A DNA stretch of 32,000 bases from Halalkalibacterium halodurans. GTDB taxonomy: Bacteria > Bacillota > Bacilli > Bacillales > Bacillaceae_D. Position 1 is the first letter of the stretch; each line of letters begins with the position of its first letter. A program made the translations under genes and the position numbers. The notes below the pieces were generated by a model that was given only the letters and a program-made list of their open reading frames with translations, did not search any database and was not told where the DNA came from. Below are positions 2,522-32,000 of the stretch, one piece after another. The stretch lies in the NCBI RefSeq assembly GCF_004376175.1, contig NZ_SNUY01000029.1, positions 1 through 32,000 on the forward strand. The letters are read 5' to 3'.

Positions 2522-2541
2522 AGAACTACCTCCTTCAGTCT

Positions 2542-5320: not shown

Positions 5321-5338
5321 CATGCAAATTATTGCATG
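5321..5338 (-). promoter_or_regulatory. Candidate upstream activating sequence (BkdR binding site)
   Basis: CATGCAA-N4-TTGCATG is an inverted repeat ~160 bp upstream of the -24/-12 promoter. On the minus strand two further TTTGCA copies follow, revcomp of 5282-5287 and 5304-5309. The distance and dyad symmetry are typical of NtrC-class activator sites. Confidence 0.35.
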
Positions 5339-5347
5339 TCATTTTTT

Positions 5348-7393: not shown

Positions 7394-7468
7394 GTTCTAA
7401 CCTCCCCTTGATCAAAAAGTCCCCAAGATAACTATTACGTAAATGTCACAAAGTTGCAACTGAGAACT

Positions 7469-7497
7469 TCGACAAGCCCGACTTTTTTCGTTAAAAT
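7469..7497 (+). promoter_or_regulatory. Candidate sigma-A promoter for the small membrane protein gene
   Basis: The -35 is TCGACA (7469-7474), the spacer is 17 nt, and the -10 is TAAAAT (7492-7497). It lies ~70 nt upstream of the ATG at 7565. Confidence 0.4.
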
Positions 7498-7564
7498 AAG
7501 GATCGTAAGGGCTCCAATGGGCGCCCGGAATATCTAAATTATTTAACCTACTAAAGGAGTCATT

Positions 7565-7822
7565 ATGTTACGTTTTATTGCTTTAATGTTACTCGTCCTT
7601 CCTTGTGTCATCGCCGGTTACGGCATTAAACTAATGAGAGATACGATCATGCAAGAGCTGCTATTTCCTTGGCCATCGTTAGCGATCCAGTTTTTGGCAG
7701 GATTCATTTTATTCGTAGCTGGCTTTAGTTTCATTGGTGGCTTTATTTTTCACCGCGACCGAAAAAATGGAAAAGTAGCTCCCCGCTTCCAAAAACGACC
7801 AAAACAGGACAATCCTCACTAA
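7565..7822 (+). CDS. yqzF: Small two-TM membrane protein (DUF2627 / YqzF-like)
   Basis: The ORF is 85 aa with AAAGGAG 7 nt before the ATG. It has two hydrophobic segments and a basic tail. It lies divergently next to bkdR, as I recall for B. subtilis yqzF, and shares the GIKLMRDT motif. Confidence 0.55.
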   Translation: MLRFIALMLLVLPCVIAGYGIKLMRDTIMQELLFPWPSLAIQFLAGFILFVAGFSFIGGFIFHRDRKNGKVAPRFQKRPKQDNPH

Positions 7823-7842
7823 TCGTCCGGTTTCGGTCGTTT
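7793..7842. terminator. Bidirectional stem-loop between two convergent genes
   Basis: aaacgaccaaaacaggac (7793-7810) pairs with gtccggtttcggtcgttt (7825-7842) at 16 of 18 positions. The structure spans both stop codons, and T-rich sequence follows on the plus strand. Confidence 0.5.
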
Positions 7843-8638
7843 ATTCTTGTGTGGATACTCCAATTTGATCGAGCAAACGGAGCAAAGAATGCCTTTCAAT
7901 AATCGAAGTAAAGGAGGTTCGCTCAGCGAGAAATGTTACCGCCGTAAACAATAGCGCAATGATCCATTGCTGAGTGACACCTGTATGGAATATTACGACT
8001 AACGCGATGATGGCTCCTACAGTTGTTGCTCCATTGTCCCCTAACATCGCTTTTTTATGCCCTTCCATCACAAAAACAATGTAAAAAACCGTCACAAAAT
8101 ACAACAACACGTCAAACGGTAAATAAAACAGCACCGGTAAAAAGGCTACAATAAAAAGAAAGGCAAGCTTCCAAACCCGCAAAGGCCGAGTATCAAATAA
8201 ATTCATCCCATGAGGAATGAGTAGTAGTAACAAAATATAGCGTACAAACTCTTGAAGCGAGGTGGGCTGAAAGGCGAAGACGACAGCCAATGTAATGATA
8301 AAAGTTCCTCCGGCTTTTAAAACACCTGTCGTCGGTTTTTTCGTGACAAACGCTTGTTTAAAATGACCTTTCAACCCTTTAGGATAGGTGGTTCCGAAAA
8401 TATCGTCTAGGATGCCTAACACCCAAATGGTCGTGACATAAAGGAGTGGCATAAAGGAAAGCAAAGGAGTTTGAACAGGAGAGAAAAATACATAAGCGAT
8501 AAAAGCAAAAAAGATAAATGCACCTAGACTATAAGGGATCGGATCTCCTTTAAAATTCGTCACCGTCCATTGAAGCTTTTCAAACAGGGTATAGCTCCCG
8601 TACGCAACAAAGCCTAAGGTAAAAAGAACAATGATCAC
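7841..8638 (-). CDS. Polytopic membrane protein, a divergent short member of the MraY/WecA (GT4, polyprenyl-phosphate sugar-phosphate transferase) type
   Basis: The ORF is 265 aa with a GTG start that overlaps the upstream stop (GTGA). It has many TM segments. Two motifs resemble MraY/WecA motifs: GILDDIFG and MLGDNGATTVGAI. The central NxxNxxDGxDGL motif is replaced by MNLFDTRPLR. Confidence 0.55.
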   Translation of the reverse strand: MIIVLFTLGFVAYGSYTLFEKLQWTVTNFKGDPIPYSLGAFIFFAFIAYVFFSPVQTPLLSFMPLLYVTTIWVLGILDDIFGTTYPKGLKGHFKQAFVTKKPTTGVLKAGGTFIITLAVVFAFQPTSLQEFVRYILLLLLIPHGMNLFDTRPLRVWKLAFLFIVAFLPVLFYLPFDVLLYFVTVFYIVFVMEGHKKAMLGDNGATTVGAIIALVVIFHTGVTQQWIIALLFTAVTFLAERTSFTSIIERHSLLRLLDQIGVSTQE

Positions 8639-9303
8639 GTGTTACTCCCCCTTAACGCCCGTTCGATATCAATCCATTGCTGAAAACGATGAATAAACCC
8701 AGAGATCGTTTTTCCTGTGTATCGATGAGCCATCAATGTTGGTATTTCTTTTACGACCGCTCCTCGCAGCAAGAAGTGAAGCAACATCTGCGTTTCAACA
8801 CCAAAGCCTTGAACGTTTTCTTCAAGTAATGAGGGAAGCCAGCGGCGGTGAAATGCTCGCTGTCCAGAAAGAGGCGCGGTGAGAAAAGCACCAGTTCGCT
8901 TGGCAATATATTGTTGTGCCCGTTTTTTCACGAGCCCGAACCCTTTCTTCGATGAATGGGTCGGAAGCATGCCAATGACGAGATCAGCCTCATTCGTTAG
9001 GAGAGGTGGAAGGAGGTGAGCCATTTCTGAAGAAGTGCTCCCAAGGTCCGCATCGAGCATCACAATGTGCGTGCCCTCTGCTCGTTTCCAGCCTTCCATG
9101 AGAGCTTGACCTTTTCCTTGATTAACAGGAAGTGCTACCGTGATATCTGCCAAACGTTCTGCAATTTTTTTCGTGTCATCTGCGCTCCCATCATCAACGA
9201 CGATCACTTCACAATCAAGGGACAAATCACGAATCCCTTGTATCGTTTGCGGAAGATCGCTTGCTTCGTTGTAAGCTGGGATCACCACAGAAATCCTACT
9301 CAC
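8635..9303 (-). CDS. Family 2 glycosyltransferase (polyprenyl-phosphate glycosyltransferase-like)
   Basis: The ORF is 222 aa. It has VVIPAYNE, VVDDGSADDT and the DXD motif LDADL. It overlaps the neighbouring gene at both ends. Confidence 0.8.
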   Translation of the reverse strand: MSRISVVIPAYNEASDLPQTIQGIRDLSLDCEVIVVDDGSADDTKKIAERLADITVALPVNQGKGQALMEGWKRAEGTHIVMLDADLGSTSSEMAHLLPPLLTNEADLVIGMLPTHSSKKGFGLVKKRAQQYIAKRTGAFLTAPLSGQRAFHRRWLPSLLEENVQGFGVETQMLLHFLLRGAVVKEIPTLMAHRYTGKTISGFIHRFQQWIDIERALRGSNT

Positions 9304-9754
9304 TCTCCACCACCTCCTTCATGCGAAGCAACGAAATATAAAACTTAAAATAATCCTCCCGCGTCGTTGGAACTTCCTCAAGGGCAAGAAGGGGTACATC
9401 TTCCTCAAGCTCATACTCTCCTAGGGCGATGAGAATGCCTTTCCGCTCTAACAGCTGCTGCTCTGACAAGAGAGGCTTCGCTTCAACACCCATCTGGCTC
9501 AGCATTTCACCTACCGATTGGAGCTCGTGTGATTCTTCACTCATAAATACGGCAAGTGATGACAACTCCTGGCGCAAAAAATCTTCCCATACTCTCTTTT
9601 CAGCCACGAGTGTACCGTTCTCTTGTCTCAAAGCTTGAACGTGTTGATACATATCGTCTGCCAGCCATGACTTATCCATGCTGATGCCAAGAATCATTCC
9701 AATCATAATGGATAAAAGGGTTGTGACGATTCCTTTAAGTCGCTCTTTTCTCAT
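9296..9754 (-). CDS. Small N-terminally membrane-anchored coiled-coil protein (resembles SteB or the MctB N-terminus)
   Basis: The track ORF 9296-9862 was trimmed to the ATG at 9754, which forms an ATGA overlap with the steA stop. The product is 152 aa, MRKERLKGIVTTLLSIMIGMILGISM..., with a single TM segment followed by a charged helical region. Its position right after steA mirrors the actinobacterial steA-steB/mctB arrangement. Confidence 0.5.
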   Translation of the reverse strand: MRKERLKGIVTTLLSIMIGMILGISMDKSWLADDMYQHVQALRQENGTLVAEKRVWEDFLRQELSSLAVFMSEESHELQSVGEMLSQMGVEAKPLLSEQQLLERKGILIALGEYELEEDVPLLALEEVPTTREDYFKFYISLLRMKEVVESE

Positions 9755-10890
9755 AAAAAGCCTCCCATTACCCAACTCCATAACAAACTGATGACGAAGG
9801 CCACGCGTGGGTGTAATAACAATACACTGCAGGCGCCAACAGGAGCTAACCGCCACATCCATTCACTTCCCATTTCCTGCTGGTGGTGCCGATATAATCG
9901 ATGAATCCCTTTTAAATCTGTAATCCGCTCACCGGCCTGCATGCGGCAGAGCAAGCTCCCCGCCATTCCACTCCTGCCTTTTTCCAGAAACTCTTTATAG
10001 CCGAAACGGCACCCAACTAGATAAAGGTGTTCCGCACCGCTCCAGTACGCCAAATAAACCGCCACATCCTCACTCGTTCCGATGAACGGAAATGTTTCGG
10101 CTGTGAGACCTAACGCTTGTAAACGTTTAAGTCCGGGAGCTCCACCATTAATATATTGATGAACTAATCGCTTTGGAATCGCTCGCAGTGTTTGCTCTGT
10201 CACTGAATCCATATCACCGATGATCATGTTCGGCTTCAAGCCTTGTCTGATCATGCCATCGGCAGCACCGTCGACTGCAATTTTTATTATATTTCTTTTC
10301 GATAATTCCTTTTTAAAAACAGCTAAATCTTGTTCAAAACCGGCATACCTAGCAACAATTAATACTTGCCTGCCTTTGCAAACGTTAAACAGGTCCGGGA
10401 TCATTGGCTTTTCTGTGAAATAAGCGACCTCGTTTTTTGCATAGTCCCATGTATTTTCAAAAAAAGAGGTAAAACGCTCAGCAAAGTCGGCATCTGCTTT
10501 CTGATTAATCTGGGCAATGGTTGCAGCATCGTATTTTTGCAGACGGGCTACTTTTCTATATCCTTTCTCAGAAGCGACAAATAATGAACGTTCCCGCAGC
10601 AACACTTTTTTCCCGTTTAATTCGAGCTCATTATTTGGAGTAAGGACTTCCGCCACATCATAAACCGCAATGCCCTCCTGCAAGAGTTGATAAATAAAAT
10701 CATGCCGGAACGCCCCATTCATCGTGGAGCACAAATTGACGATGGCTTTCACTTGTCTCGCCAATAATCCTTCCACCGCAAGGGAATCGAGATTTTCGTG
10801 TGAAATCACAGCAATCGATCGTTCAGGAAGCGTTTCCAATAGCTTTTTTGTCTTTCGATGCTGATAAGCTGTCCCTTCAATTCGCCCCAT
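9751..10890 (-). CDS. steA: SteA-like putative cytokinetic-ring / cell-separation protein (thiamine pyrophosphokinase-like domain plus C-terminal hydrophobic tail)
   Basis: The ORF is 379 aa. It has a TPK-like motif MIIGDMDS and a hydrophobic C-terminus (APVGACSVLLLHP...LLWSWVMGGFL). Its size and architecture fit SteA-family proteins. Confidence 0.7.
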   Translation of the reverse strand: MGRIEGTAYQHRKTKKLLETLPERSIAVISHENLDSLAVEGLLARQVKAIVNLCSTMNGAFRHDFIYQLLQEGIAVYDVAEVLTPNNELELNGKKVLLRERSLFVASEKGYRKVARLQKYDAATIAQINQKADADFAERFTSFFENTWDYAKNEVAYFTEKPMIPDLFNVCKGRQVLIVARYAGFEQDLAVFKKELSKRNIIKIAVDGAADGMIRQGLKPNMIIGDMDSVTEQTLRAIPKRLVHQYINGGAPGLKRLQALGLTAETFPFIGTSEDVAVYLAYWSGAEHLYLVGCRFGYKEFLEKGRSGMAGSLLCRMQAGERITDLKGIHRLYRHHQQEMGSEWMWRLAPVGACSVLLLHPRVAFVISLLWSWVMGGFL

Positions 10891-11018
10891 GTCTTTCCCT
10901 ACTTTCTTCTGTATGCACCAGTCATAGTATGATTCGAAACGAATCGTTTTAGCAGCTTCACTTTTAGGAAAACATATCCATCACTTTCTTAAGTTATCAT
11001 GACGAATGCAATCAAATA

Positions 11019-11046
11019 GGCCAAGAGCTTAAAAAGACTCTTGGCC
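11019..11046 (-). terminator. Rho-independent terminator-like hairpin
   Basis: ggccaagag (11019-11027) pairs with ctcttggcc (11038-11046) in a 9-bp perfect stem. On the minus strand it is followed by TATTTGATT. Confidence 0.5.
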
Positions 11047-11100
11047 GGATAATGGGCACGGTTAGACAGGAAAAAATTTTTTTCGATGGAACCGGGTCGG

Positions 11101-11334
11101 TTAATAGCCGACAAAACCAACAGAGTCAGCTTCCTCTTCTGTGTCCCACGCCTGGTTTTTCTTTTTCTTATTGTCTGCCTGAAGATTGAGATAGATGGAC
11201 TCTAAATCTACATGTTTTTCATAGTGCCACTGCAAAGCAACTGAAGTGTAGAGTTCATTAAGCTGAGCATATGAAAACCCTTTTGTCCACTCAACCAATG
11301 TTTTTACTTCGTCTTCTTTTTCAAATCTATATTT
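11101..11334 (-). pseudogene. 3' remnant of an AAA+ ATPase gene (lid-domain region only)
   Basis: The stop-to-stop frame encodes ...KYRFEKEDEVKTLVEWTKGFSYAQLNELYTSVAL.... This resembles the T-x-GFSGADL-x-x-L lid segment of AAA ATPases. There is no Walker region, no ATG and no RBS, and the frame starts immediately after the spo0A terminator. Confidence 0.35.
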
Positions 11335-11346
11335 CAGAACGAAACA

Positions 11347-11381
11347 AACCCAACAAATCTAAAGATAAGATTTATTGGGTT
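11347..11381 (-). terminator. Terminator hairpin downstream of spo0A
   Basis: aacccaacaaatct (11347-11360) pairs with agatttattgggtt (11368-11381) at 13 of 14 positions. On the minus strand it is followed by TGTTTCGTT. Confidence 0.5.
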
Positions 11382-11441
11382 CGTTATGCTGATTTGAAAG
11401 CAGGTTTTTTTCTAACATGAAAAAACCTACCTCTTTCCCTT

Positions 11442-12245
11442 TCAGCTTACTTTGTGCTCAATTCGCAGCTTATCGGCTACCATGGCGATAAACTCTGAGT
11501 TTGTTGGCTTGGCTTTAGAGACGCTGACTGTGTAGCCGAACAAATTGGAGATGGAATCAATGTTCCCACGACTCCATGCTACTTCAATCGCGTGACGGAT
11601 GGCGCGCTCCACGCGGCTTGATGTCGTGTTAAATTTCTTGGCGATGTCAGGGTATAGTACCTTTGTAATCGATCCGAGCAATTCAATGTCATTATACACC
11701 ATCGTAATCGCTTCACGGAGATACATGTAACCTTTAATGTGAGCTGGGACCCCAATTTCGTGAATGATGTTCGTAATGCTCGCATCTAAATTAAAGACGT
11801 TTGCTTCAGGCTTCTTCGGTTGTGCAAATGAAGAGTGGTTAGATGCAGTATTTTGCACAAACGAACGTTTTTGACCGCTAACTTCACGGATGTTATTAAT
11901 TAAAATCTCCATATCAAAAGGCTTTAATACGTAGTAAGAGGCTCCTAAATCAACCGCTTTTTTCGTGACATCTTCTTGACCAAAGGCTGTTAGCATAATG
12001 ATGTTCGGCTTCGTTTGCAAGTTCATGTACGGGAGTTTTTCAAGTACAGCCAAACCGTCCAAATGAGGCATAATAATGTCCAAAATTAAAACATCTGGCT
12101 GTCTTTCCTCCACAATCGATAAACATTCTTGACCGTTAAAAGCAACGCCTACCACTTCCATATCGTCTTGGGCAGACACATAGTCATTCAGTAAGTTCAC
12201 AAGTTCGCGATTATCGTCAGCAATACATACTTTCACCTTTTGCAC
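11442..12245 (-). CDS. spo0A: Sporulation master response regulator Spo0A
   Basis: The track ORF was trimmed to the GTG at 12245, which lies 8 nt after GGAGGG. This gives 267 aa, the length I recall for B. subtilis Spo0A. The sequence is near-identical over [25 protein letters not shown], and the DNA-binding region [12 protein letters not shown]...[19 protein letters not shown]. Confidence 0.96.
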
Positions 12246-12290
12246 GAGAACAACCCTCCAGTTACTAAGATACTTCCTTGTCATAAACTT

Positions 12291-12429
12291 TTCGACATTC
12301 GACCTAGAATCCCTCTTCAAATTTTAAAAAAATTAAAAAATCCCATAATTTCTTTTATTTCCTTCGTTTTACTCTTGTTTTCGATATGATTCGCCATTTG
12401 ACTACAAAGAATTTATTCCTTTTGTCGAA
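12291..12429 (-). promoter_or_regulatory. spo0A upstream control region with three 0A-box-like heptamers
   Basis: There are three matches to TGNCGAA: TGTCGAA (minus strand, 12297-12291), TGGCGAA (minus strand, 12396-12390) and TGTCGAA (plus strand, 12423-12429). I could not place a sigma-H or sigma-A hexamer pair with correct spacing. Confidence 0.35.
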
Positions 12430-12496
12430 TTTTCTTTATCCTTATCATAGCACACTTTCTCTTCTTCGTTCATCCTTTTCTTTTTGCAGAAATGGG

Positions 12497-12531
12497 AAAA
12501 AGCCAAAGGAGGTCAACTCGCTTTGGCTTTT
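12497..12531 (-). terminator. Rho-independent terminator overlapping the spoIVB stop codon
   Basis: On the minus strand AAAAGCCAAAG pairs with CTTTGGCTTTT. The 12-nt loop contains the TGA stop, and TCCCATTT follows the stem. Confidence 0.55.
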
Positions 12532-13826
12532 GATTGATCGAAGGTAATACCTGCCTCTTCAAGCATCCAACTTATATGACATCCGTAACCGCTAGTGGGA
12601 TCGTTTACAAACACATGAGTCACTGCACCAACAAGCTTTCCGTCTTGAATAATCGGACTTCCACTCATCCCCTGAACAATTCCACCTGTTGTGTTTAGCA
12701 ATTTTGGATCTGTCACTTTGATGACAAGTCCTTTTGTTGCCGGTTGCTTTTGTGGAACCGAGCTGACAATCTCAATATCAAATTCTTCAACTTTTTCTCC
12801 TTCAACAACGGTTAAAATTTTGGCGGGGCCTTCCTTCACATGGTTTGATAATGTCACCGGAAGTGCTTCATCTGACACATGATTTTTTAAATCCTTTTCG
12901 GTTAGCGTTCCAAAAATTCCGAATGAACTATTTTTCTCAATTGTCCCTAATGTGTTACGTTGGTTTGAAAAACTCGCTAACTTTTCACCTGGGTCTCCAT
13001 TGCTCCCTTTGTCAATAGACGTAACAGATGAGCGAATAATTTGACCGTCGTGAACAACGATCGGCTTTTTTGTATCCACATCAGATATCACATGCCCGAG
13101 AGCACCATATTTTTTCGATACTGGGTCATAGAACGTTAGTGTGCCAACACCTGCAGCTGAATCTCGAATGTACAATCCCATGCGAAAGGTGGATTCTCCT
13201 TTATTTTTCAAAGGTGACAACTCACGTACAAGGGTTTGATCCCCTCGACGAATTTCCACTTTTAATGGCTTCTTGCCTTCTCCCGCTGCTTGGACCACAT
13301 CTCCCACTTCATCCATGTGCTGAATTTCTTTATCATTCAGTTTGGTAATTCTGTCACCTACACGGATACCTGCCAGTTCCCCAGGTGATTTCTCACCGTT
13401 TTCTGAATGGATGAGATGATGACCAACAACAAGGACACCATCTGTATTCACTTTTACACCGATCGACTGTCCGCCAGGAACGACTTTCATTTTCGGAAGC
13501 GTATCAATGCTCAGCTTTTTGATTGGAATGCCTGCTACTTCTATTGTGGCTTCATCTGTACCTTCTTCTACTCCTGTAACGGTTTGCTTCGTGTAACCAT
13601 CATCTGTTGGCATAGCTTCAAATGCCACTTTCGATTCTTTCGTAGACACTGTTATTGCTTGACTTAACATGCTGGAGGTTTCCAGCCATTCGAGTTGTTC
13701 TCCCTCAAAGATCGTTAATGATGTTGGTGACATCAGTAAGTCTTTCACGGACGGAGAAAAACCGATCATCATCATCGTGACAAGGAGACAGCCTCCTACC
13801 ACCATTCGAATCGTTTCGCCTCTCAC
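12513..13826 (-). CDS. spoIVB: SpoIVB signalling serine peptidase (PDZ plus S55 peptidase domain)
   Basis: The sequence has a PDZ segment ([16 protein letters not shown]), the catalytic region YGALGH, and the serine motif GMSGSPII. The start is ambiguous. I chose the GTG at 13826, 10 nt after AGGAG. The ATG at 13805 and the track start at 13859 are alternatives. Confidence 0.9.
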
Positions 13827-13881
13827 TTCCTTCACTCTCCTAGCTCCTAGCCCACACACCCGATTGGTTTGGCTCTATATC

Positions 13882-15681: not shown

Positions 15682-16131
15682 CTATAACATGTTTAAAAAT
15701 CGCTCGGTCACTACAGGTCCATCTTGCTTGTCTTTACATATGATCAGGATCGTATCATCACCACAAATGGTTCCCATAATTTCAGTCCAATCAAGGTTAT
15801 CAATGAGCGCACCAATGGCATGGGCATTCCCTGGCAATGTTTTCATCACAATTAAATTATCCGTTCGGTCGATGCTAACAAAAGAGTCCACAAGACCACG
15901 TTTGAGCTTTTGTAACGGATTAAAACGTTGGTCAGCTGGTAAACTATATTTATATCGCCCATCCATCATTGGTACTTTGACAAGATGCAGCTCTTTTATG
16001 TCACGAGAAACTGTTGCTTGGGTGACATTGTAACCAGCCGCCTTTAACTGTTCTACAAGCTCATCTTGCGTTTCAACATCGTTATTTGCAATGATCTCTC
16101 TAATTTTAATATGTCGCTGTCCTTTATTCAT
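15682..16131 (-). CDS. argR: Arginine repressor
   Basis: The ORF was trimmed to [14 protein letters not shown]..., giving 149 aa, the length I recall for B. subtilis AhrC. The sequence is conserved over [19 protein letters not shown] and [12 protein letters not shown]. Confidence 0.95.
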
Positions 16132-16164
16132 GATTACCACCTGTTTTCTAGAGTCAATACCTTT

Positions 16165-17156: not shown

Positions 17157-19046
17157 TTACGCCCTTTTTTGCTTTCTCGGAAGCAATTTGCTTAATTGGT
17201 TCGCCACTTGGCTTGAGGTGAGGCCAATTTCTTCAAGCAATTCGCTTACGCTTCCGTGTTCAATAAATCGATCAGGTATTCCCATCCGCTGGGTGACGAC
17301 ATTGTGATACCCATGGTCATGGAAAAATTCCAGTACCGCACTACCAAAACTTCCTTGCACCGCTGTCTCCTCAAGCGTTAATACTGGTCGCCCGCTTTTC
17401 GCAATCTCGTGAAGCATCGCCTCATCAAGAGGTTTAACCGACCTAGCATTGATTAACCGGATGGAATAACCTTGTTGTGAAAGCTCTTTACTCGCTTGCT
17501 CTGCAACTGGGATCATCGTTCCGAAGGTAAGAATACAGGCATCCGTTCCTTCTTGTAGCACTTCCCACGATCCAATTGGGATTTCCTTTAACACCTCGTC
17601 CATTTTGATTCCATACCCGTTCCCTCTCGGATAACGGACAGCTATTGGTCCACCCTCATATTGAATGGCTGTATAAACCATGTGCTGCAATTCATTTTCG
17701 TCCTTTGGCATAAGGATCTTCATGTTTGGTAAATGGCGTAAATAGGCGATATCGAAAACCCCTTGATGTGTTTCGCCATCTGCCCCAACAAGTCCTGCTC
17801 GGTCAATTGCAAAAAACACGTTTAAGTTTTGCCTGCAAATGTCGTGCACGACTTGGTCATATCCCCTTTGCAAAAAGGTTGAATACACAGCGAATACGGG
17901 CTTTAACCCTTGTGTTGCAAGTCCCCCGGCCATTGTGGTCGCATGCTGCTCTGCAATCCCTACATCAAACATACGATCTGGAAATTCCTTTGCGAATTGG
18001 TCAAGCTTCGTCCCACCAGGCATGGCTGCAGTGAGGGCCACAATTCGAGGGTCGTTGCGAGCAATTTTCTTTAATGTTTCTGCAAACACACCGCTATAAC
18101 TTGGCGGAGCCGGTTTTTTTACAAGCTCACCTGATTCAATTTTGTAATGACCGACCCCATGCCATGTACCCTTCTCATCATTTTCTGCGGGGGCGTAGCC
18201 TTTTCCTTTTTTCGTCAGAACGTGAATGAGGACAGGACCTTTTGTTTTCTTCGCGTATTTCAAGTTTTCCATCAAATCGTCAAGGTCATGGCCGTCGACT
18301 GGTCCTAAATACGTAAAGCCCATTTCTTCAAAGAAAATGCCAGATACGAGCAAGTACTTTAAGCTGTCTTTCACACGCTCAGCCGCTTGAGCCAACTTAC
18401 CACCGAAAGCTGGAATCTTTTTGATCAGCATTTCCAGATCTTCTTTTGCCTTTTGATATTTACCTGCTGTCCGCAAGCGCCCAAGAACATTGTGAAGAGC
18501 ACCGACATTTGGAGCGATCGACATTTCATTATCGTTTAATACGACAATTAAATCCTTCTGCTCATGTCCGATATGGTTTAACGCTTCGAGGGCCATGCCA
18601 CCTGTCAACGCTCCATCACCAATGATGGCGATAACGTTTTCATCTGTCCCCTTTAAATCACGGGCTGTAGCCATTCCCATCGCTGCAGATAGAGAAGTGG
18701 AACTGTGTCCCGTTTCCCAAACATCATGCTCACTCTCGTCGCGTTTCGGAAATCCACAAAGCCCTTTATATTGTCTAAGTTGATCGAATTGTCCTGCTCG
18801 TCCAGTCAAAATTTTATGTACGTAAGCTTGATGACCTACGTCCCAAATCAACTTGTCTTTCGGACTGTCAAACAGTGAATGTAATGCCAACGTCAATTCG
18901 ACAACCCCAAGGTTTGGCCCGAGATGGCCGCCCGTAATGGATAGCTTTTCAATTAAAAATTGACGAATCTCTTCCGCTAATTGCTCCAATTCTTGCTTTG
19001 TCATTGATTTGATCAAGGAAGGATCGTGCAGCTTCTCTAAGTCCAT
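17157..19046 (-). CDS. dxs: 1-deoxy-D-xylulose-5-phosphate synthase
   Basis: The ORF is 629 aa. It has [14 protein letters not shown] and the ThDP motif [16 protein letters not shown]...NDN. Confidence 0.96.
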
Positions 19047-19055
19047 GAAGTGACC

Positions 19056-19670
19056 TCACTTTCGAGAATTTTTCTCTTTCTTCTTTTTTCCATTTGGTAG
19101 AAAGTTTATGTTCATTTTTTCTTCAAGAAAATAAAACACTTTTCCTACTTGGTAAATAATTGCGGTGGAATGCTCAATCGCCAATGTCTTCCCAATCGCT
19201 TTACCGCCCACCGTTAGCGCGGCTACCACACTCGTAAATAAAACCGACAACGCAAATTGCTGGCCTGAGTTTTCACCATACCCGAGCTGTAAAGCCAACT
19301 GAATGACAACATAGGTGGCTGCTGTTCCACTCACAATACCTGATATATCTCCAATTACATCGTTGCAAAAATTCGCAAACCGATCCGCATTGCGAGTAAT
19401 GGCGACAGCTTGTTTTGCCCCTTTTAACCGCTCTGAAGCCATCGCATGAAATGGCTTTTCATCTGCTGCAGTTGCTGCCACCCCAATTGTATCAAAAAGA
19501 ATCCCAACAAGCACAATAAGCAAAACGATTCCCATGCCAACTGCCCAGGAAACACCGCTTAACATGAATGTGGAGACAATTGAAAAAATCGCCGCTAACA
19601 CAAGCGTGATAACGGCAATAGCTAAAGTCCAATTTATTGATTTTCCTAGAGATTTCATAGCGCCTCGCAT
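19056..19670 (-). CDS. oapA: Four-TM membrane protein in the position of OapA (OLE-associated protein A)
   Basis: The ORF is 204 aa with four hydrophobic segments (about residues 14-37, 42-66, 104-127 and 138-160) and a lysine-rich tail. It lies between the large non-coding region and dxs, which is the published OLE/oapA context. The start could be the ATG at 19670 or at 19658, and both have weak SD spacing. Confidence 0.7.
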   Translation of the reverse strand: MRGAMKSLGKSINWTLAIAVITLVLAAIFSIVSTFMLSGVSWAVGMGIVLLIVLVGILFDTIGVAATAADEKPFHAMASERLKGAKQAVAITRNADRFANFCNDVIGDISGIVSGTAATYVVIQLALQLGYGENSGQQFALSVLFTSVVAALTVGGKAIGKTLAIEHSTAIIYQVGKVFYFLEEKMNINFLPNGKKKKEKNSRK

Positions 19671-19699
19671 ACACCTTTTTAAATAGAATACACTAAATT

Positions 19700-20330
19700 C
19701 GTTCCGACTGCGTATGTATGAGAGTGGTCATTTAAAGAGTAAACTCTGTGGCTTAGGTCCAGTAGGATTTCCCAATTCAACACCAGTGCGTCGCCGCGCT
19801 GGCGGTTTCCCTTTATGTTGAACTTGGCGCTGTCACCAAACGCCAGACTGGATTACCACTTAGTCCACACTGTAATCCTCTTTAAATGTCCCCATGGAAC
19901 AGTCTAGGAGTTTTCCTCGGCAATCCCTTGCCATTCTCTTATCCTCTTTTGCAGAGCAGATTTCATATGGTACTAGAGAGGCAATGGCTGTTGGCCGACA
20001 GCGGATTGCTTCAAAACCCATAATCCCCTCTACTCCACTCAAGGCAGGCTACGCTGCTGACAAGCTCCCTAGCTTGCCTTCGCAGGTTCATACCCTTTGC
20101 TCTTGCCCTATGTCCATACATAAGCAGCAGAGAAAAAGGCCTCCACAGTAGGAGGGTCATCGCCCACATGCCTTTGTGGATCGCCCTACTACCTTTTCTC
20201 CCAGCAATGACCCAAGGCTGGGCGCCTCAAGCCATCACAAGGAGCTTCATCGATGTGCCCTTTGGCGGATTTTTAGCCCCGCCTTCAAGAATGGAGGATT
20301 GACTAGAATACTGCACCACTCTTATTCTAA
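19700..20330 (-). ncRNA. ole: OLE (ornate, large, extremophilic) RNA; the ends are approximate
   Basis: The gap between ispA and oapA is 723 bp and has no credible ORF. It looks more G+C-rich than its flanks. Many local helices are readable in it: 20304-20310/20323-20329, 20264-20268/20279-20283, 20200-20205/20217-20222, 20164-20168/20175-20179, 20140-20144/20151-20155, 20061-20066/20071-20076 and 19825-19829/19841-19845. A near-consensus promoter sits just upstream. The synteny ispA-ole-oapA-dxs matches B. halodurans as published. Confidence 0.75.
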
Positions 20331-20335
20331 AAGAC

Positions 20336-20364
20336 ATTATACCATGAAATCAATCGAAGCTCAA
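20336..20364 (-). promoter_or_regulatory. Strong sigma-A-type promoter directly upstream of the OLE RNA
   Basis: On the minus strand the -35 is TTGAGC (20364-20359) and the spacer is 17 nt ending in TGg (an extended -10). The -10 is a perfect TATAAT (20341-20336). The predicted start is near 20329, at the foot of the first hairpin. Confidence 0.5.
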
Positions 20365-20393
20365 TTACATTAATTCCCTTCTTTGATCAGCAA

Positions 20394-21278
20394 CTAATGG
20401 TTACGATTCACGACATAATCCGTTAATTCCTCTAATAAGCGATGGTTCATTTGAACACTATATAAATATTCCTTTGCCAGCAAAGTATGCAAGTGAAGCT
20501 TCTCTTTTGCCCCTTCGAGGGTTAATAGGCTTGGATAGGTGCTTTTTTGATTTCCATCATCGCTTCCAACTGGTTTACCAATGGCAGCTTGATCCCCTTC
20601 AACATCTAAAATATCATCTTTTATTTGAAAGAGTAAGCCTAATTCTCTTGAAAATCTACGTATGTTCTCAATATCTTGTTCAGATGCATCCGCAAGCCTT
20701 GCCCCTGCAACAATGGCGAACGAGAGAAGCGCCCCTGTTTTATGATGGTGGATATATTCAAGTCCCTCGACCGTTAGTTTTTGATTTTCTCCTTCGATAT
20801 CAGCTACTTGTCCGCCTACCATTCCTTCTGGTCCAGCAGCCCTTGCAAGCTCTTCTATCAAGCAGAGTGTTTTGGCCGGGTCAACACCTTTCATTTTGGC
20901 CACAATCTCAAAGCTGTACGTTAATAATGCATCCCCTGCAAGAATGGCATGAGCTTCTCCGAACACTTTATGGTTCGTCGGTTTTCCCCGGCGAATATCA
21001 TCATCATCCATCGATGGGAGGTCATCATGAATGAGCGAGTACGTATGAATCATCTCAATCGCACAGGCAAGGTCAATCCCCTGTGAAATATCCTTTTGAA
21101 AACTTTTCATCGTTGCCAATAGCAGCGCTGGTCGAATTCGTTTTCCTCCTGCCTTCAAGGAGTAAAGCATAGAATTTTTCAGCATGTCAGGAGAATTTAG
21201 TCGTTCAATATGTGCAGGCATCCGCTCTTCGATGATGTCTTTAATTTCATCTAAAAATTGTAACAGTTGTACACTCAC
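20394..21278 (-). CDS. ispA: Farnesyl diphosphate synthase
   Basis: The ORF is 294 aa. It has the first aspartate-rich motif [17 protein letters not shown] and the second, FQIKDDILD. The GTG start overlaps the xseB stop (GTGA). Confidence 0.93.
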
Positions 21279-24164: not shown

Positions 24165-24354
24165 ACTCCTTCTAATTGAAAACTTAAAGATAGGTTAAGT
24201 TTCCCCATTAATATGTTTGATCATAGCATAACATTTTTCGTAAAAACAGAACAATTGCAGAAAAGAGTCGGAACAACTTTCGTTTTCTGAATATTTTTGA
24301 CCCTTTGTTTATCTATCAACGTTTAACTGATTGCTGAATCCTGTTTGATGAGTG

Positions 24355-24382
24355 CAAAAAAGCGACCCAAAATTGAGCCGCT
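24355..24382 (-). terminator. Rho-independent terminator after yqhY
   Basis: On the minus strand AGCGGCTC-aatttt-GGGTCGCT forms an 8-bp stem that includes 2 G-U pairs. It is followed by TTTTTG. Confidence 0.5.
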
Positions 24383-24392
24383 TTTTGAGCCA

Positions 24393-24791
24393 TTATTTAG
24401 TTTCTTCTTCTCCATCGACTGCTTCAAAATGCACGCCGACAATATGAACGTTTATGGATTGTAGCTCAATGGCAGTCATAGTTTGCAAAGCTTGTTTGAT
24501 GTTTTGTTGAATTTTCTTCGCCACTTCTGGAACGGATACTCCGTAAAGAATAATGACGGAAACATCAACGATAATCCCCTCGTCATTCAAATCAACCTTT
24601 ACACCTTTGCCATGATTTTTATAACCTAATTTCTCTGCCACTCCTGCTGCAAAATTGCCCCTCATGGTGGCGACCCCTTCAACTTCTGAGGCTGCAATCC
24701 CAGCGATTACTTCAATGACCTCTGGTGAAATTTCCACCCTGCCTAAATCTGTTTTTTGCTCTTCTAGGTCTAACAGATGGTTCTCGTTCAT
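24393..24791 (-). CDS. yqhY: Asp23/Gls24-family alkaline shock protein
   Basis: The ORF is 132 aa. It has the typical GRVEISPEVIEVIAGIAASEVEGV segment. It lies after accC as in B. subtilis. Confidence 0.85.
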   Translation of the reverse strand: MNENHLLDLEEQKTDLGRVEISPEVIEVIAGIAASEVEGVATMRGNFAAGVAEKLGYKNHGKGVKVDLNDEGIIVDVSVIILYGVSVPEVAKKIQQNIKQALQTMTAIELQSINVHIVGVHFEAVDGEEETK

Positions 24792-26825: not shown

Positions 26826-27179
26826 TTATTCTTCTTGCTCCTCGCCTTCTTCTTTCGTGATGGCGTCAAATTTGTATTGGCGGAACACAGGGAACTCTGA
26901 TAAATTATCAGGAATTTTTCCGTTTTCCAAAAGAATAATTTTCACAATATTTTTATTTCGTGCCATATGGTACTTTTCACCATATTCATTTTCAAGTGTA
27001 TACCTTTTTAAGCTTTGATAATCTTCCTCTTGAATGGATACGGTGTAAGTCCCACCTTCTGTTTCATACTCATGTTGAAAGCCTACCTCAAACTCAACAA
27101 TTTGAATATGGTCGTTTTTTAAATTTCGGGTTTGTTCCAATACGGCTTTTGCACCTTCGGTTAGTTCAGACCATTCCAT
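26826..27179 (-). CDS. Hypothetical acidic cytoplasmic protein (117 aa), with no family recognised
   Basis: The ORF has AAGGAGAG 7 nt before the ATG, its own extended -10 element and a downstream hairpin. It has no TM segment and ends in a Glu-rich tail (KEEGEEQEE). It occupies the position of the membrane protein gene yqhV in B. subtilis but does not resemble it. Confidence 0.6.
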   Translation of the reverse strand: MEWSELTEGAKAVLEQTRNLKNDHIQIVEFEVGFQHEYETEGGTYTVSIQEEDYQSLKRYTLENEYGEKYHMARNKNIVKIILLENGKIPDNLSEFPVFRQYKFDAITKEEGEEQEE

Positions 27180-27599: not shown

Positions 27600-29165
27600 T
27601 TGAATCAATTTCATAAAGCCTATCTCTTGAATCAGACAAGAATCCAATTTTCGTTTTATTGATTTTAAAAATGGATTTAAGCTGCTTGAATCATCTCCTT
27701 TTCGGAGAGTACTTTAGCTATGCGATCACACGCGAGTTTCGAACCGTTATAGACTAATTGTGTCAAATCAAAATGTACTTTTGCTCGTTTTCCTGTACGG
27801 TAACGAACATTATTTAATTGGAAGAATTCTTTAAGATAAGCGATGACGCGTTCGACTGCACTTCTTTGCTTGTAAAGATTTTTCCAAGCTTTTGAACCAC
27901 GGGCTGGCGCTGTATAGCGACGTAGATCCGTCGTGATTTTCACTTTATAGACTTTCTGACAGAGCGTATCTTCTGCTAGCGGACAGTCTTTACACTCTTT
28001 TGGACGTGTATACTTTAGTGTCTCGTAAGTTGGGTCATAACTATCATACCGATATGAATGTTCGCGAACACAGGTAGGGGCAAAATACTTATCAAAGCCT
28101 ACTGGTTCTGATTCATTCTTCTTGTTATAAGCAATAATGGACTGGGCACGGATCCGATAGATTTGTTCATAAATAGCGGGATAATCGTAACCTGCATCCA
28201 GTGTACTGTAAGAGATCGGAAGGATAGAAAGACGCTCATGAATGCCTTTTAATAAAGGGATTGCCGCTTTTCCATCATTTAGATTACCAGATGAGAATAG
28301 AGATTGAAGAATGTACTGACTTTTGGTTCCAACGGCTAAATGTCCTTTATATCCAAACCAATAAGCATTCTTTCCTTCACTATTTTTCTTAATGCCCCAT
28401 TTAGGATCAGTTGGAACGGACGATCGTAATTCATTTAAAGGCGTATCAAGCTGAGATTCAATGGGTTTCTCAAAAACTGACAGAGCTGCTTCGCGTTCAG
28501 CCTGTTCTTGAACCCATTTCTCTTGTTCTTCTTTTGATTTACGCCCACGTTTTTTGGGTTCTGGTTTCGCTTTTTCTACTTTCGCTGGCGCTTGATCACG
28601 AGCTTCAATATGAGTCGCATCGATGGCAATGGTGTCGTCCATGACAAATCCTTCAATGATGGCTTGAAGAATCTGCGTTTCTTGAACACGTTCTAAAACA
28701 TCTGATTCTTCTAATTTTGTGAGCATTCTTGAATAAGATGCTTCAGATGGAATCGCATCAGAAAGAAGGAATCCACAATCTAAACGGAACATGTAGTCAT
28801 TCTTTAAACGTTTAATAAGATCTTTAATCGTAGGAATTCGTTCAAGAATTCTAGCTGTAAGTGAGTAAATCATCGCTGCGTAGTTTAGCTGAACAGGAGC
28901 ACCATAAAGGGTTTTTTTCGATACAACAGCTAGAATCGGATCAACCTCAATTGTCGAAAATACCGCTTCAAAACGGTGGGTAGGTTCTAACTCATATAAA
29001 TCTTGCAGGGCAAATAGGCTTCCTTGTCGTATAATAGTCATAAGGGAGTCTTCCTCCAGTCGTTAGTTTTGTGTGGTAACTTACTAATTCGACTTTTGGG
29101 GAGGTACTCCTTTTTTCGTGTCTTAAAAGCCTTACGAGACTAAGGGTTCAAATTATGAAATTTAC
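27600..29165 (-). mobile_element. Insertion sequence of the IS4 superfamily (IS1182/IS660-like); the boundaries are approximate
   Basis: A single transposase gene is flanked by AT-rich non-coding DNA. A 10-bp inverted pair, aatttcataa (27608-27617) and ttatgaaatt (29151-29160), is the only candidate terminal repeat I found. I saw no target-site duplication. Confidence 0.5.
27677..29041 (-). CDS. IS4-superfamily DDE transposase (IS1182/IS660-like)
   Basis: The ORF is 454 aa. The DDE candidates are AIDATHIEA, TLDAGYDY and RSAVERV. The IS4-type Y-2-R-3-E-6-K signature is present as YKQRSAVERVIAYLK. A cysteine-rich insertion (CKDCPLAEDTLC) is present, as in IS1182-like enzymes. Confidence 0.85.
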   Translation of the reverse strand: MTIIRQGSLFALQDLYELEPTHRFEAVFSTIEVDPILAVVSKKTLYGAPVQLNYAAMIYSLTARILERIPTIKDLIKRLKNDYMFRLDCGFLLSDAIPSEASYSRMLTKLEESDVLERVQETQILQAIIEGFVMDDTIAIDATHIEARDQAPAKVEKAKPEPKKRGRKSKEEQEKWVQEQAEREAALSVFEKPIESQLDTPLNELRSSVPTDPKWGIKKNSEGKNAYWFGYKGHLAVGTKSQYILQSLFSSGNLNDGKAAIPLLKGIHERLSILPISYSTLDAGYDYPAIYEQIYRIRAQSIIAYNKKNESEPVGFDKYFAPTCVREHSYRYDSYDPTYETLKYTRPKECKDCPLAEDTLCQKVYKVKITTDLRRYTAPARGSKAWKNLYKQRSAVERVIAYLKEFFQLNNVRYRTGKRAKVHFDLTQLVYNGSKLACDRIAKVLSEKEMIQAA

Positions 29166-29239: not shown

Positions 29240-29875
29240 TTACTTAGAATCATTATGATGTCCTACCGTTACAAGACGATCGGAACCTAGCTGTTTGCTC
29301 GCCATCACCATAATTTCGTTGGCTTGCTCAGCTGTAAGTTCTTCAGCTTGCACGATGATACGTACTTGCTCTTCTTCGGCAAGAACGAGCACATCATCGT
29401 ACCCTTGTGCTTTGATCAACGTTTCCAATGTAGCTTCTTGCTGGGAAAGCCGTTGCAGTTCTTGACTCTTTGTGAACGCCTCGCTCTTCATTTCAGCGGT
29501 AGCATCTGGAGAGCCCATAATGTTCGTGTAGTTTTCAGCCATTTCTTCACGAGAGGCGATCATTTGGTTACGAATCGTCGCAAACACTTCATTGCTTGCC
29601 ACATTTGAAATCGAGCCAACGTCTGAATCTGTCTCAGCCTCTGCTCCCATCTCCTCGTCCTCTTCTACCGTCACCTCTTCGCCTTCACCTTCAGCATCCA
29701 GATCGATGTCCATCTCCTCTAGCTGCCTTTCCATTTCTTCCTGCATATCGTTTAGCTCCTCATCCGAGACAAACGCAACATCTTCGCCTCCAGGGGACAT
29801 CATGTAGTAAGCAGAAAGAACGACAATTAAGCTAAGCATTGTTAACAACCACACCGTTTGTTTTTTCAACACCAT
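29240..29875 (-). CDS. spoIIIAH: Stage III sporulation protein AH
   Basis: The ORF is 211 aa. Its N-terminus LKKQTVWLLTMLSLIVVLSAYY is near-identical to B. subtilis SpoIIIAH. It has an acidic linker and a C-terminal YscJ/FliF-like region (LETLIKAQGYDD). Confidence 0.9.
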   Translation of the reverse strand: MVLKKQTVWLLTMLSLIVVLSAYYMMSPGGEDVAFVSDEELNDMQEEMERQLEEMDIDLDAEGEGEEVTVEEDEEMGAEAETDSDVGSISNVASNEVFATIRNQMIASREEMAENYTNIMGSPDATAEMKSEAFTKSQELQRLSQQEATLETLIKAQGYDDVLVLAEEEQVRIIVQAEELTAEQANEIMVMASKQLGSDRLVTVGHHNDSK

Positions 29876-29877
29876 TA

Positions 29878-30543
29878 CTATTCCTCCTTCGATTTCTTAG
29901 GCATAACAGACACCCGATGAGCTGGAACATCCAACACTCGACTGACCGCTTCAACGACCATCCCTTTGACTTGGGCATTTTCAACGCCTTCCGCTACAAT
30001 CAATACCCCGCGGACTTGCGGTTTTTCCTTTTGTACAAGAAGAGGCTTCTCTTGATCCCCTTCTCTGACGATCACGACCTCCTCGTCTCGCGATACATCA
30101 TCCACCTTCCGTGTTCCCCCTTCGCGATCGGTCTCATCGGTCTTTTGTTGCTTCGTGCTCGAATTTTTCTCATAAACCATTCGTTCCGTCTCTGCAAGGT
30201 TAATCATGACCGTTACATCTGAAATTCCTACAATTTGCTCCAAGCTCTCTTTGAGCTGATTTTCGTACTGAATTTCATATTGCTCCATTTCACTAGACTG
30301 ACTGGAGGAGCGCTGACCGAATGTCTCCTGATCTTCTTGGCGATCGGTATCATCTTCTTGAAAAACAGGTGCTGTGTCTCCTTGATCATCATTAGGTGAC
30401 AGCAAATTACCAACAATCATGAGCATTAACCCTATACAAAGAATGACGATCACATATTGAAAAGAGAACTTCCCCTTTTCTGCCCCTTTTTTATGAAATA
30501 ATTTTTTCAACCACTGGCGATCTTGTTGTTCATCATGACCCAT
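29878..30543 (-). CDS. spoIIIAG: Stage III sporulation protein AG
   Basis: The ORF is 221 aa with a single TM segment (YVIVILCIGLMLMIVG) and the conserved C-terminus VRGVLIVAEG. It overlaps spoIIIAF by 11 nt. Confidence 0.9.
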   Translation of the reverse strand: MGHDEQQDRQWLKKLFHKKGAEKGKFSFQYVIVILCIGLMLMIVGNLLSPNDDQGDTAPVFQEDDTDRQEDQETFGQRSSSQSSEMEQYEIQYENQLKESLEQIVGISDVTVMINLAETERMVYEKNSSTKQQKTDETDREGGTRKVDDVSRDEEVVIVREGDQEKPLLVQKEKPQVRGVLIVAEGVENAQVKGMVVEAVSRVLDVPAHRVSVMPKKSKEE

Positions 30544-31183
30544 TCCCTTGCTCCCCTCCTTCCCATACCAACGAAATCATTTCCTCAGGGATTTGCCATA
30601 CTTCGGCAAGATAATGAATGTACTTCTGATTCATTCGATCCTCCGTTGACACTGACTGAATGTCTTCGGTCTTTGATGCCAGATCGATCTGAACCGGGGA
30701 AACGACTTCGATGCTAACGGATTCATCATCGGCCTCCTCTGTTAATAAAACGGTAACCGATTGAACTTGATCGGGATGAAACCCCGATTCATAAGCGGTA
30801 GGTTCGATAACAACATCCACTGATTGAATTTGAACACCATACGTTTCACGGAACTCCTCCTCCACTTGTCTTTTTAATTGGACAGCCATCTGTTCAGAAA
30901 TATATGCACGCATGTCGGATTCTATATCATCTTTTTTTGAATTCCAGTCCGATTCTACGGAAAGTTCTGATGTGCTCGTCGCTAAGGAAAGCTCTGCAAA
31001 CCAAGTGTCTAAATCTTCCGTTACAATCGCTAAGACCGGTTGTAGCATCACAACTAGCAACAGCAAACCGACGACCATGCGCACATATCGTTGGAACATA
31101 GAGTTTGGAAGTAGCAGTTCCAAAATCGTTGCTAGCAAAATGAGTAAGATTAAATTCGTTAACCAGTCGGTTAGAAAACCCAC
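30533..31183 (-). CDS. spoIIIAF: Stage III sporulation protein AF
   Basis: The ORF is 216 aa with a GTG start 7 nt after GGAGG. Its N-terminus FLTDWLTNLILLILLATILELLLPNS..YVRMVVGLLL resembles B. subtilis SpoIIIAF. Confidence 0.9.
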   Translation of the reverse strand: MGFLTDWLTNLILLILLATILELLLPNSMFQRYVRMVVGLLLLVVMLQPVLAIVTEDLDTWFAELSLATSTSELSVESDWNSKKDDIESDMRAYISEQMAVQLKRQVEEEFRETYGVQIQSVDVVIEPTAYESGFHPDQVQSVTVLLTEEADDESVSIEVVSPVQIDLASKTEDIQSVSTEDRMNQKYIHYLAEVWQIPEEMISLVWEGGEQGNGS

Positions 31184-31210
31184 GTCGGTTCCTCCCCTTT
31201 GTAAGATTCA

Positions 31211-32000
31211 TTATCGAATCATCACCGATGCATTACCGGCCACAATCATTATCGTAATCGCGAGAAAAAACATTAAACAAACGACGGCCAGAGAAGCAAA
31301 AATGAAAATAATCGCCTTTCCGATAATCGATAAACAGTCCGTTATCGGACCTGCACCTAACGGCTGTAAGATAGCGGCTGAAATATGAAAAATCACCGCT
31401 AGAGACAGAACTTTAATTGCTGGAAAAGCACAGAGCATAAGCAGGATTGCCAGCCCAGCAACACCGACGGTATTTTTTAAAAGAAGCGACGCACTCATGA
31501 CCGTATCGGCAGCATCTGTAAACATCCGGCCAACAACAGGGACAAAGTTGCCGGCAATGTATTTGGCCGTTCGAACCGTAATGCCATCTGTCACGGCAGT
31601 TGTTGCCCCTTGAACGGAGATAATCCCTAAAAACACCGTTAAAAAGACACCAAGAACTCCGACTGCGATCGTGCGTAAAAAGTTAGCCAATTTCGTTACT
31701 TTATAGTGATCGGTCATCGTGCTCACAATGCTTAAAACCGTAGAGATAAACAGCAAAGGTAAGACAAAATGGTGAATGACCATTCCACTCGTATTAACCA
31801 TAAATACAATCAACGGATGAAACAAAGCCGCAGAGGTAATATTTCCGATTGCCGCCATCAGGGCAAGAAGAAGCGGTAAAAGGGCCACCATAAAATGGAC
31901 CATGCTGGATATGGCTTCTTTCGTATAATCCATTGCCACGTGAAAGCTATTTAACGCAATAAGCATCAAGACCATATACGTAATGGCATACGCCACTTTG
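31211..32000 (-). CDS. spoIIIAE: Stage III sporulation protein AE, C-terminal part; the 5' end lies outside the window
   Basis: A polytopic membrane ORF stays open to the window edge. It sits upstream of spoIIIAF in the conserved operon order. Confidence 0.88.
   Translation of the reverse strand, partial: KVAYAITYMVLMLIALNSFHVAMDYTKEAISSMVHFMVALLPLLLALMAAIGNITSAALFHPLIVFMVNTSGMVIHHFVLPLLFISTVLSIVSTMTDHYKVTKLANFLRTIAVGVLGVFLTVFLGIISVQGATTAVTDGITVRTAKYIAGNFVPVVGRMFTDAADTVMSASLLLKNTVGVAGLAILLMLCAFPAIKVLSLAVIFHISAAILQPLGAGPITDCLSIIGKAIIFIFASLAVVCLMFFLAITIMIVAGNASVMIR

Follow-up and report, generated by a model that had tools for sequence, protein, structure and literature searches.

OLE RNA is a large, ancient-looking, membrane-bound RNA that may be the first natural transmembrane RNA, and its model organism is Halalkalibacterium (Bacillus) halodurans C-125, in which its protein partner OapA is the product of BH2780 (PMC12265935, PMC3413148). 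OLE localises to the membrane as a discrete transcript of ~600 nt (PMC3413148, PMC12265935), and the H. halodurans ribonucleoprotein particle contains OapA, OapB (at the P13 GUGA hairpin), OapC and bS21. OapA is required for membrane localisation of the RNA, and loss of either ole or oapA leads to sensitivity to short-chain alcohols, cold, more than 2 mM Mg2+ and poor carbon sources. OapA itself has been described as a distant relative of the CNNM domain of the MpfA/CorB Mg2+ exporters (PMC11332333, PMC12265935). Across Bacillota, the occurrence of MpfA is anticorrelated with that of OLE; MpfA has CBS and CorC domains, which are missing from OapA (PMC11332333, PMC12265935). The OLE RNAs of Clostridium form an RNA-only homodimer via L4, L5/L6/L7 and L9.3 bridges (PMC12286853). 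In this study, we analyzed a 32,000-nt stretch of H. halodurans DNA (contig NZ_SNUY01000029.1, positions 1 to 32,000, assembly GCF_004376175.1; hereafter the window), focusing on the gap between ispA and oapA on its minus strand.

This gap is almost certainly the ole gene of H. halodurans, encoding an OLE RNA of ~610 nt and followed directly downstream by its obligate partner oapA. First, scanning the whole window against Rfam 15 gave a single match above the curated threshold, to RF01071 (OLE), which scored 538.6 bits (gathering score, 50 bits; E=1.9e-155) and covered model positions 1-616/616 without truncation (Table 1). Second, sequence look-up revealed that the products of oapA, dxs, ispA and xseB exactly match BAB06499.1/Q9K970 (BH2780), BAB06498.1, BAB06500.1 and BAB06501.1 of H. 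halodurans, respectively. Since the flanking proteins are identical to BH2779-BH2782 of C-125 and BH2780 is OapA, the window holds the reference ole-oapA locus itself. Proteins identical to those of the window were present on 20-23 contigs, and the strain is indistinguishable from C-125 on that basis. Third, the published C-125 ole gene, located between BH2781 and BH2780 (Puerta-Fernandez et al. 2006; Wallace et al. 2012; Lyon & Breaker 2025), is the same locus: sequence, structure, host, neighbours, promoter and OapB/OapA binding motifs all agree, with no difference. OLE positions are numbered in this analysis as 20336 minus the window coordinate, and the published B. halodurans numbering corresponds to 20337 minus the window coordinate (anchored on the GUGA tetraloop, U502-A504, and the bulged U498).

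A preliminary description of the window, made from the letters only, had already named this element as OLE RNA, and the covariance-model match on the minus strand agreed with it, as did the outcome of each of the other checks that it had suggested. The gene order that it gave, nusB-folD-xseA-xseB-ispA-OLE-(four-transmembrane (TM) protein)-dxs, was reproduced by domain matches; the DNA comes from H. halodurans, and BH2780, the small membrane protein, is the published OapA. Thus, OLE is recognisable from sequence alone, by its context and composition. The locus is the archetypal, experimentally characterised one, already known and studied since 2006; nearly all OLE genetics and biochemistry rest on it, and no new question is opened here. 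With regard to what weighs against the OLE identity, the window sequence was probably among those used to build the Rfam model, so that the RF01071 bit score is partly circular; otherwise there is essentially nothing. The covariation test described below was carried out on 77 other species independently of Rfam training and is hence free of that circularity.

Searching one genome per species with OapA yielded 80 loci from other Bacillaceae, including Halalkalibacter, Evansella, Alkalicoccus, Salibacterium, Halobacillus, Lentibacillus and other genera. An OLE homolog was found directly upstream of the oapA homolog and on the same strand in all 80 loci (nhmmer E <= 1e-78), and ispA lay upstream of OLE in all 75 loci with enough upstream sequence. 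The dxs gene followed oapA in 66 of the 80. Thirteen loci of the Lentibacillus/Virgibacillus/Ornithinibacillus type (L051, L052, L059, L062, L064, L066, L069, L070, L072 and L075-L078) kept ispA-OLE-oapA and had no dxs within 2.5 kb downstream, which suggests that the linkage to dxs is looser than that to ispA and oapA.

Covariation was assessed by explicit pair counting in a 78-sequence MAFFT alignment (A1), with the Rfam consensus projected onto the window and P1 added. The consensus comprised 20 helices and 165 pairs; 91.0% of the cells were paired, and 117 of the pairs were compensatory (changes on both sides). The covariation score was 0.375, compared with 0.08-0.10 when the partners were slid by 1-3 columns (39-44% paired in these slid controls), and the observed covariation was reached by none of 500 shuffles. 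Helices 6, 11 and 12 showed low pairing because MAFFT misaligned the variable P7 and the distal part of P9. The minus strand was also well folded, as previously claimed, with a minimum free energy of -237.3 kcal/mol versus -203.4 +/- 5.9 for shuffles (z = -5.7).

As shown here or in earlier work on this locus, the OLE fold consists of about 25 conserved helices, with P1 closing the molecule. The names P4-P9 used here were inferred from verbal descriptions in the papers (for P4: PMC12265935, PMC12286853). P1 was 98.7% paired, with compensatory changes in 4/7 pairs, and was also present in the minimum free energy fold. The P3/P3.1 helix, which joins the two domains of the RNA, contains 15 bp (95% paired, 12/15 compensatory; 31-59% paired in slid controls). 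It was proposed in 2025 to span the lipid bilayer, for which roughly 14 bp are needed (PMC12265935), and the H. halodurans helix is long enough for such a span. The structure line of RF01071, as printed by cmscan, leaves P1, P3 and P3.1 unpaired, although all of them covary strongly in the 78 species; P3/P3.1 is central to the current transmembrane hypothesis. Both strands of P2, in the CUAG-containing segments 20308-20301 and 19908-19902, are invariant, and covariation is thus silent on this helix.

The published protein-binding and dimer motifs were located in the same way. OapA sites have been reported in or near P2 and P4a (PMC12265935), with two mapped OapA-binding palindromes, and we infer that the AUCGAU hexamer in the P4a region is one of these. 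In the P13 hairpin, GUGA is preceded by UUU, and these positions agree with U498 and U502-A504 of the crystallised B. halodurans OapB-OLE fragment; the hairpin has the GNRA tetraloop and the bulged U next to P12.2 of the OapB-binding site. As for the dimer contacts, the A-rich loop of P4 (L4) forms bridge B1 in the structures solved by cryo-electron microscopy (cryo-EM), and the loop of P5.1 makes a kissing contact with that of P6.1 in the partner RNA; complementary GCC/GGC, invariant across the alignment, is present in L5.1 and L6.1. The motifs CUAAAAAU, GCGCCCAG and AAGGCAU were all present, each being invariant in 78/78 sequences, and GGCC was found here and in 62/78. In P9, GGCC is the symmetric kissing loop of dimer bridge B3 (PMC12286853).

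Sixteen of the 78 relatives had no GGCC in P9 (L021-L024, L026-L031, L034-L037, L041 and L045; A1 columns 335-411), and in most of them P9 was truncated. They belong to Evansella, Salipaludibacillus, Alteribacter, Alkalicoccus, Salisediminibacterium and Texcoconibacillus. One of them, L041, had a full-length P9 arm whose predicted loop carries other palindromes (UCGA and AAUU). The other 15 had no replacement 4-nt palindrome in the predicted terminal loop, and on this prediction bridge B3, as seen in the cryo-EM dimer, would be missing from them.

The protein encoded next to the RNA was analyzed for its relationship to known transporters. The OapA open reading frame (ORF; 204 aa) matched no Pfam or NCBIfam family at default thresholds. 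When Pfam was relaxed to E<=10, a sub-threshold similarity to CNNM (PF01595) appeared (17.2 bits versus a cut-off of 28.4; E=0.0043), and OapA resembles the CNNM family but is not a member of it. Hydropathy placed hydrophobic segments at residues ~9-31, 36-60, 101-123 and 132-152. The TM2-TM3 loop carries K/R at positions 68, 77, 79, 82, 89 and 93, with R89 98% conserved. The DxxxD motif (D100 and D104), named in PMC11332333 and distinctive relative to CNNM domains, was invariant in 121/121 OapA homologs. The closest database relative of the 204-aa ORF was an H. halodurans protein with 99% identity. The 204-aa form (ATG 19670) was absent from the sequence collection and homologs align from residue 5; the 200-aa form (ATG 19658) was therefore preferred, and the true gap between ispA and oapA is 19659-20393. 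The preliminary description was right in regarding this gap as non-coding, whereas the size that it gave, 723 bp, corresponds to ATG 19670 and should be 735 bp, since ATG 19658 is the start both in the deposited BH2780 and in every homolog. A well-spaced Shine-Dalgarno sequence is missing from both starts (for ATG 19658, AGGUG is 13 nt upstream and GAGG 4 nt upstream).

For the mechanism of OLE, the best current model in the literature is an RNA dimer on the CNNM-like membrane protein OapA acting as a stress-response particle. We tentatively favor a reading along these lines, which we give slightly less than an even chance, in which an OLE dimer docked on OapA dimers is the regulatory/sensing module of a transporter. 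Dimerisation of OLE would involve loops L4, L5.1/L6.1 and L9, each of which occurs in this sequence, and the RNA dimer would dock on OapA, itself dimeric and putatively a CNNM-like transporter of divalent cations. OLE might then play the role that the CBS and CorC domains have in the all-protein MpfA/CorB, and could couple ion flux and other stress responses to the cellular state. More speculatively, the 15-bp P3/P3.1 may cross the bilayer, which would place the two RNA domains on opposite membrane faces. The sources of the dimer and transmembrane model are PMC12286853 and PMC12265935. Several points weigh against this reading. OapA is a putative transporter for which no transport activity has been demonstrated. 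The structures solved by cryo-EM contain RNA only, were obtained for two Clostridium species and show domain 1 alone, and docking is the basis of the transmembrane placement. Under optimal conditions the knockout is without a phenotype, and its transcriptome is barely changed (PMC3413148). Finally, the absence of the P9 GGCC kissing loop from 16/78 relatives suggests that at least that dimer contact is dispensable.

A rather unlikely alternative, though the strongest of those considered, is that OLE is a peripheral, cytoplasm-facing scaffold tethered by OapA, which sequesters or releases proteins such as bS21, OapC and perhaps ArgR (a 'bTOR' hub) and thereby reprograms translation and metabolism under stress, with no membrane crossing and no gating of ion transport. 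Both bS21 and OapC are ligands of domain 1 that have been connected with the ethanol and cold phenotypes (PMC12265935, PMC12286853), the gene neighbourhood includes ahrC/argR, tlyA and nusB, and such a scaffold avoids the energetic problem of an RNA inside the bilayer. However, it leaves unexplained the Mg2+ hypersensitivity and the anticorrelation with MpfA (PMC11332333), as well as the flat face of domain 1 with protruding P3 stems seen by cryo-EM (PMC12265935). The scaffold and transporter-regulation models are not mutually exclusive. In the window, ahrC/argR (15682-16140, minus strand; NF003281, 276 bits) belongs to the minus-strand cluster that includes ole, from which it is 3.5 kb downstream. 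ArgR is mentioned in the 2025 review as a candidate OLE-binding protein, as yet unpublished, and this linkage may not be accidental.

We consider it doubtful that OLE is a ribozyme (a c-di-AMP synthase or another catalyst) whose proteins are folding chaperones and a membrane anchor rather than regulated effectors. In size, in its share of near-invariant nucleotides (roughly 25%) and in structural complexity it is like a typical ribozyme, many invariant nucleotides of domain 2 have no assigned partner, and the idea has been raised repeatedly by the Breaker laboratory (PMC12265935, PMC11332333). On the other hand, nearly 20 years have passed without a catalytic activity being found, and splicing or self-cleavage products were not seen (PMC3413148). 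The present sequence analysis has no bearing on catalysis.

Alternative folds of the RNA were considered as well. The preliminary description had drawn six helices by eye, only half of which proved to be right in the 78-species alignment. Three were consensus helices: 20264-20268/20279-20283 (99.5% paired, 4/5 pairs compensatory), and 20061-20066/20071-20076 and 20054-20057/20082-20085, which are nested in P8 (6/6 and 2/4 pairs compensatory, respectively). The other three shared no pair with the consensus, showed no compensatory changes and were rejected as conserved structure. Helix a (20304-20310/20323-20329) was paired in 47.7% of cells. Helix c (20200-20205/20217-20222), between the invariant L5.1 loop and the base of that loop's own hairpin, is in competition with the 20-bp hairpin 20244-20198 (8 compensatory pairs). 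Helix d (20140-20144/20151-20155) uses the P6 3' arm and the conserved single-stranded joiner GUGGAGG; neither c nor d can form together with the supported stems. In addition, helix d looks like a terminator hairpin followed by a U-run (CCUCCUACUGUGGAGG CCUUUUUCUC; 20140-20155, minus strand) inside the OLE RNA. A terminator at this place was rejected, as the pairing is not conserved and the full-length RNA is observed; the hairpin presumably never forms because its 5' arm belongs to P6. It is very improbable that such pairings outside the consensus represent real alternative conformers specific to H. halodurans, forming a co-transcriptional or stress-dependent switch. The clearest candidate is helix a, a perfect 7-bp hairpin (UAGAAUA/UAUUCUA) at the extreme 5' end, which may sequester the invariant GUAUUCUAG segment beside P1/P2, where one OapA-binding palindrome maps. 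The lack of conservation mentioned above bears on these pairings as shared structure, and not on a lineage-specific role.

The ole gene is preceded by a sigma-A-type promoter (Table 1), from which transcription is expected to start near 20329. It was the joint best site in the 9-kb region scanned, tied with the site 22736-22708. An equivalent promoter (at least 10/13) was detected in 71/78 related loci versus 2.3% of shuffled controls, at a fixed distance, its -10 element ending 11-16 nt before the conserved RTGGTGCAG. Published data for this locus, which already include the transcript evidence that the preliminary description had called for, show that the proximal promoter raises OLE expression more than 100-fold, that 5' rapid amplification of cDNA ends places the RNA end near the P1 start, that northern blotting gives a single band of a very abundant RNA, that the RNA is almost undecayed 4 h after rifampicin, and that short-chain alcohols induce it about 7-fold (PMC3413148).

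These data also bear on whether OLE might be only a long cis-acting leader (a riboswitch- or attenuator-like 5' untranslated region) for oapA-dxs, and not a free-standing functional RNA, which we regard as extremely improbable. No terminator-like site was detected between OLE and oapA on the minus strand, and the oapA start codon at 19658 is only 49 nt from the end of the Rfam match. The missing terminator is consistent with co-transcription of the cluster, in which OLE is made from its own strong promoter and within the nusB...dxs polycistron (PMC12265935). However, OLE accumulates as a single discrete ~600-nt species that is highly stable and extremely abundant, and ethanol raises it about 7-fold with the oapA mRNA only modestly changed (PMC3413148). 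In addition, it binds OapA, OapB, OapC and bS21 as a particle, and its size and roughly 25 conserved helices are far beyond any known leader.

That the gap instead contains a decayed protein gene or small protein(s), with the helices being incidental, has next to no chance of being correct and was rejected: it does hold six ORFs of 44-85 aa, but these are spread over both strands, none of the six had a credible Pfam match at E<=1 (best E-value 0.063), the 117/165 compensatory pairs over 78 species are not codon-patterned, and the covariance-model match is full length. The preliminary description had noted the short ORFs on both strands correctly, and also the high G+C content: the OLE RNA has 49.8% G+C compared with an average of 43.8% in the window (628-nt windows, sd 2.9%), and only 0.6% of such windows are as rich.

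The gene neighbourhood is the typical OLE setting, with an alkaliphile host in Bacillota and ispA, dxs, xseAB, folD, nusB, yqhY, tlyA and recN all present in order. The complete order on the minus strand is accC, yqhY (Asp23 family), nusB, folD, xseA, xseB, ispA, OLE, oapA, dxs, tlyA, ahrC/argR and recN. The review counts yqhY as one of the genes with the most frequent linkage to ole. Between yqhY (24393-24791) and nusB there is a 228-nt gap (24165-24392, minus strand) with a promoter-like site at 24319-24290 and no Rfam match. An IS1182-family transposase (27677-29041, minus strand; NF033551, 296 bits), which probably belongs to the numerous IS copies in this species, lies between the spoIIIA genes (29240-31996) and the accB/accC side. 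The stretch 529-13859 (minus strand) shows ordinary Bacillus-type synteny, including a bkd operon (sigma-54 activator at 5348-7393, leucine dehydrogenase, lpdV, E1 alpha and beta subunits), steA, spo0A (11442-12320) and spoIVB (12513-13859). Three ORFs (7841-8638, 9296-9862 and 26826-27179) had no NCBIfam match at E<=1e-10.

Table 1. Features of the ole-oapA locus in window coordinates; pairing and invariance refer to the 78-species alignment.
Feature	Position	Strand	Remarks
ole, OLE RNA (RF01071), full length	19708..20335	-	covariance-model match and 78-species covariation
Sigma-A-type promoter, TTGAGC-17 nt-TGgTATAAT	20336..20364	-	10/12 hexamer matches plus TG extension
P1 5' arm, GAGUGGU	20315..20321	-	pairs with 19722-19728; closes the whole molecule
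P1 3' arm, ACCACUC	19722..19728	-	partner of 20315-20321
5' strands of P3 (20301-20295) and P3.1 (20294-20287)	20287..20301	-	
3' strands of P3.1 (19938-19931) and P3 (19927-19921)	19921..19938	-	3-nt bulge 19930-19928
P4 hairpin, A-rich loop CUAAAAAU at 20276-20269	20264..20283	-	99.6% paired; loop invariant in 78/78
Palindrome AUCGAU, P4a region	20249..20254	-	invariant in 78/78
P5/P5.1 20-bp hairpin, loop GCCCA	20198..20244	-	95.1% paired, 8 compensatory pairs; loop invariant
P6/P6.1 hairpin, loop AAGGCA	20147..20193	-	consensus helices 4 and 5
Conserved joiner GUGGAGG after P6	20146-20140	-	
Variable hairpins P7 (20139-20093) and P8 (20085-20054)	20054..20139	-	15/17 and 10/13 pairs compensatory
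P9 long arm, palindromic GGCC in predicted terminal loop 19996-19993	19942..20045	-	consensus helices 8-12
3' multi-helix part of domain 2 (P11-P15 region)	19729..19888	-	helices 15-20, 87-100% paired, 37/47 compensatory
OapB site, P13 hairpin with GUGA tetraloop 19836-19833	19845-19825	-	invariant tetraloop, bulged U
ispA (farnesyl diphosphate synthase, BH2781), upstream neighbour	20394..21278	-	NF045485, 423 bits; exact match BAB06500.1
oapA (BH2780), 200 aa	19056..19658	-	four TM, DxxxD, basic TM2-TM3 loop, Lys-rich tail
dxs (BH2779), downstream neighbour	17157..19046	-	TIGR00204, 943 bits; exact match BAB06498.1

Compared with other known systems, the ole-oapA pair can be set beside the CNNM-CBS-CorC Mg2+ exporters (MpfA/CorB/CorC). 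These have three TM helices, whereas OapA has four and the DxxxD motif; OapA has neither the conserved CNNM proline nor the CBS/CorC domains, ending at residue 200, and a 600-nt RNA is bound instead. Among RNAs, GOLLD, ROOL and the raiA motif are, like OLE, large, highly structured and abundant, although no sequence or structural homology relates them to OLE. GOLLD and ROOL also resemble OLE in forming RNA-only homo-oligomers in cryo-EM; however, they are phage-associated and form cages of 14 and 8 subunits, whereas OLE is dimeric, chromosomal and membrane-bound via a dedicated protein. The signal recognition particle RNA (4.5S/scRNA) shares with OLE the nature of an abundant non-coding RNA working at the membrane as a ribonucleoprotein, but in contrast to OLE it is universal, much smaller, of known function, and only transiently at the membrane via a soluble protein.

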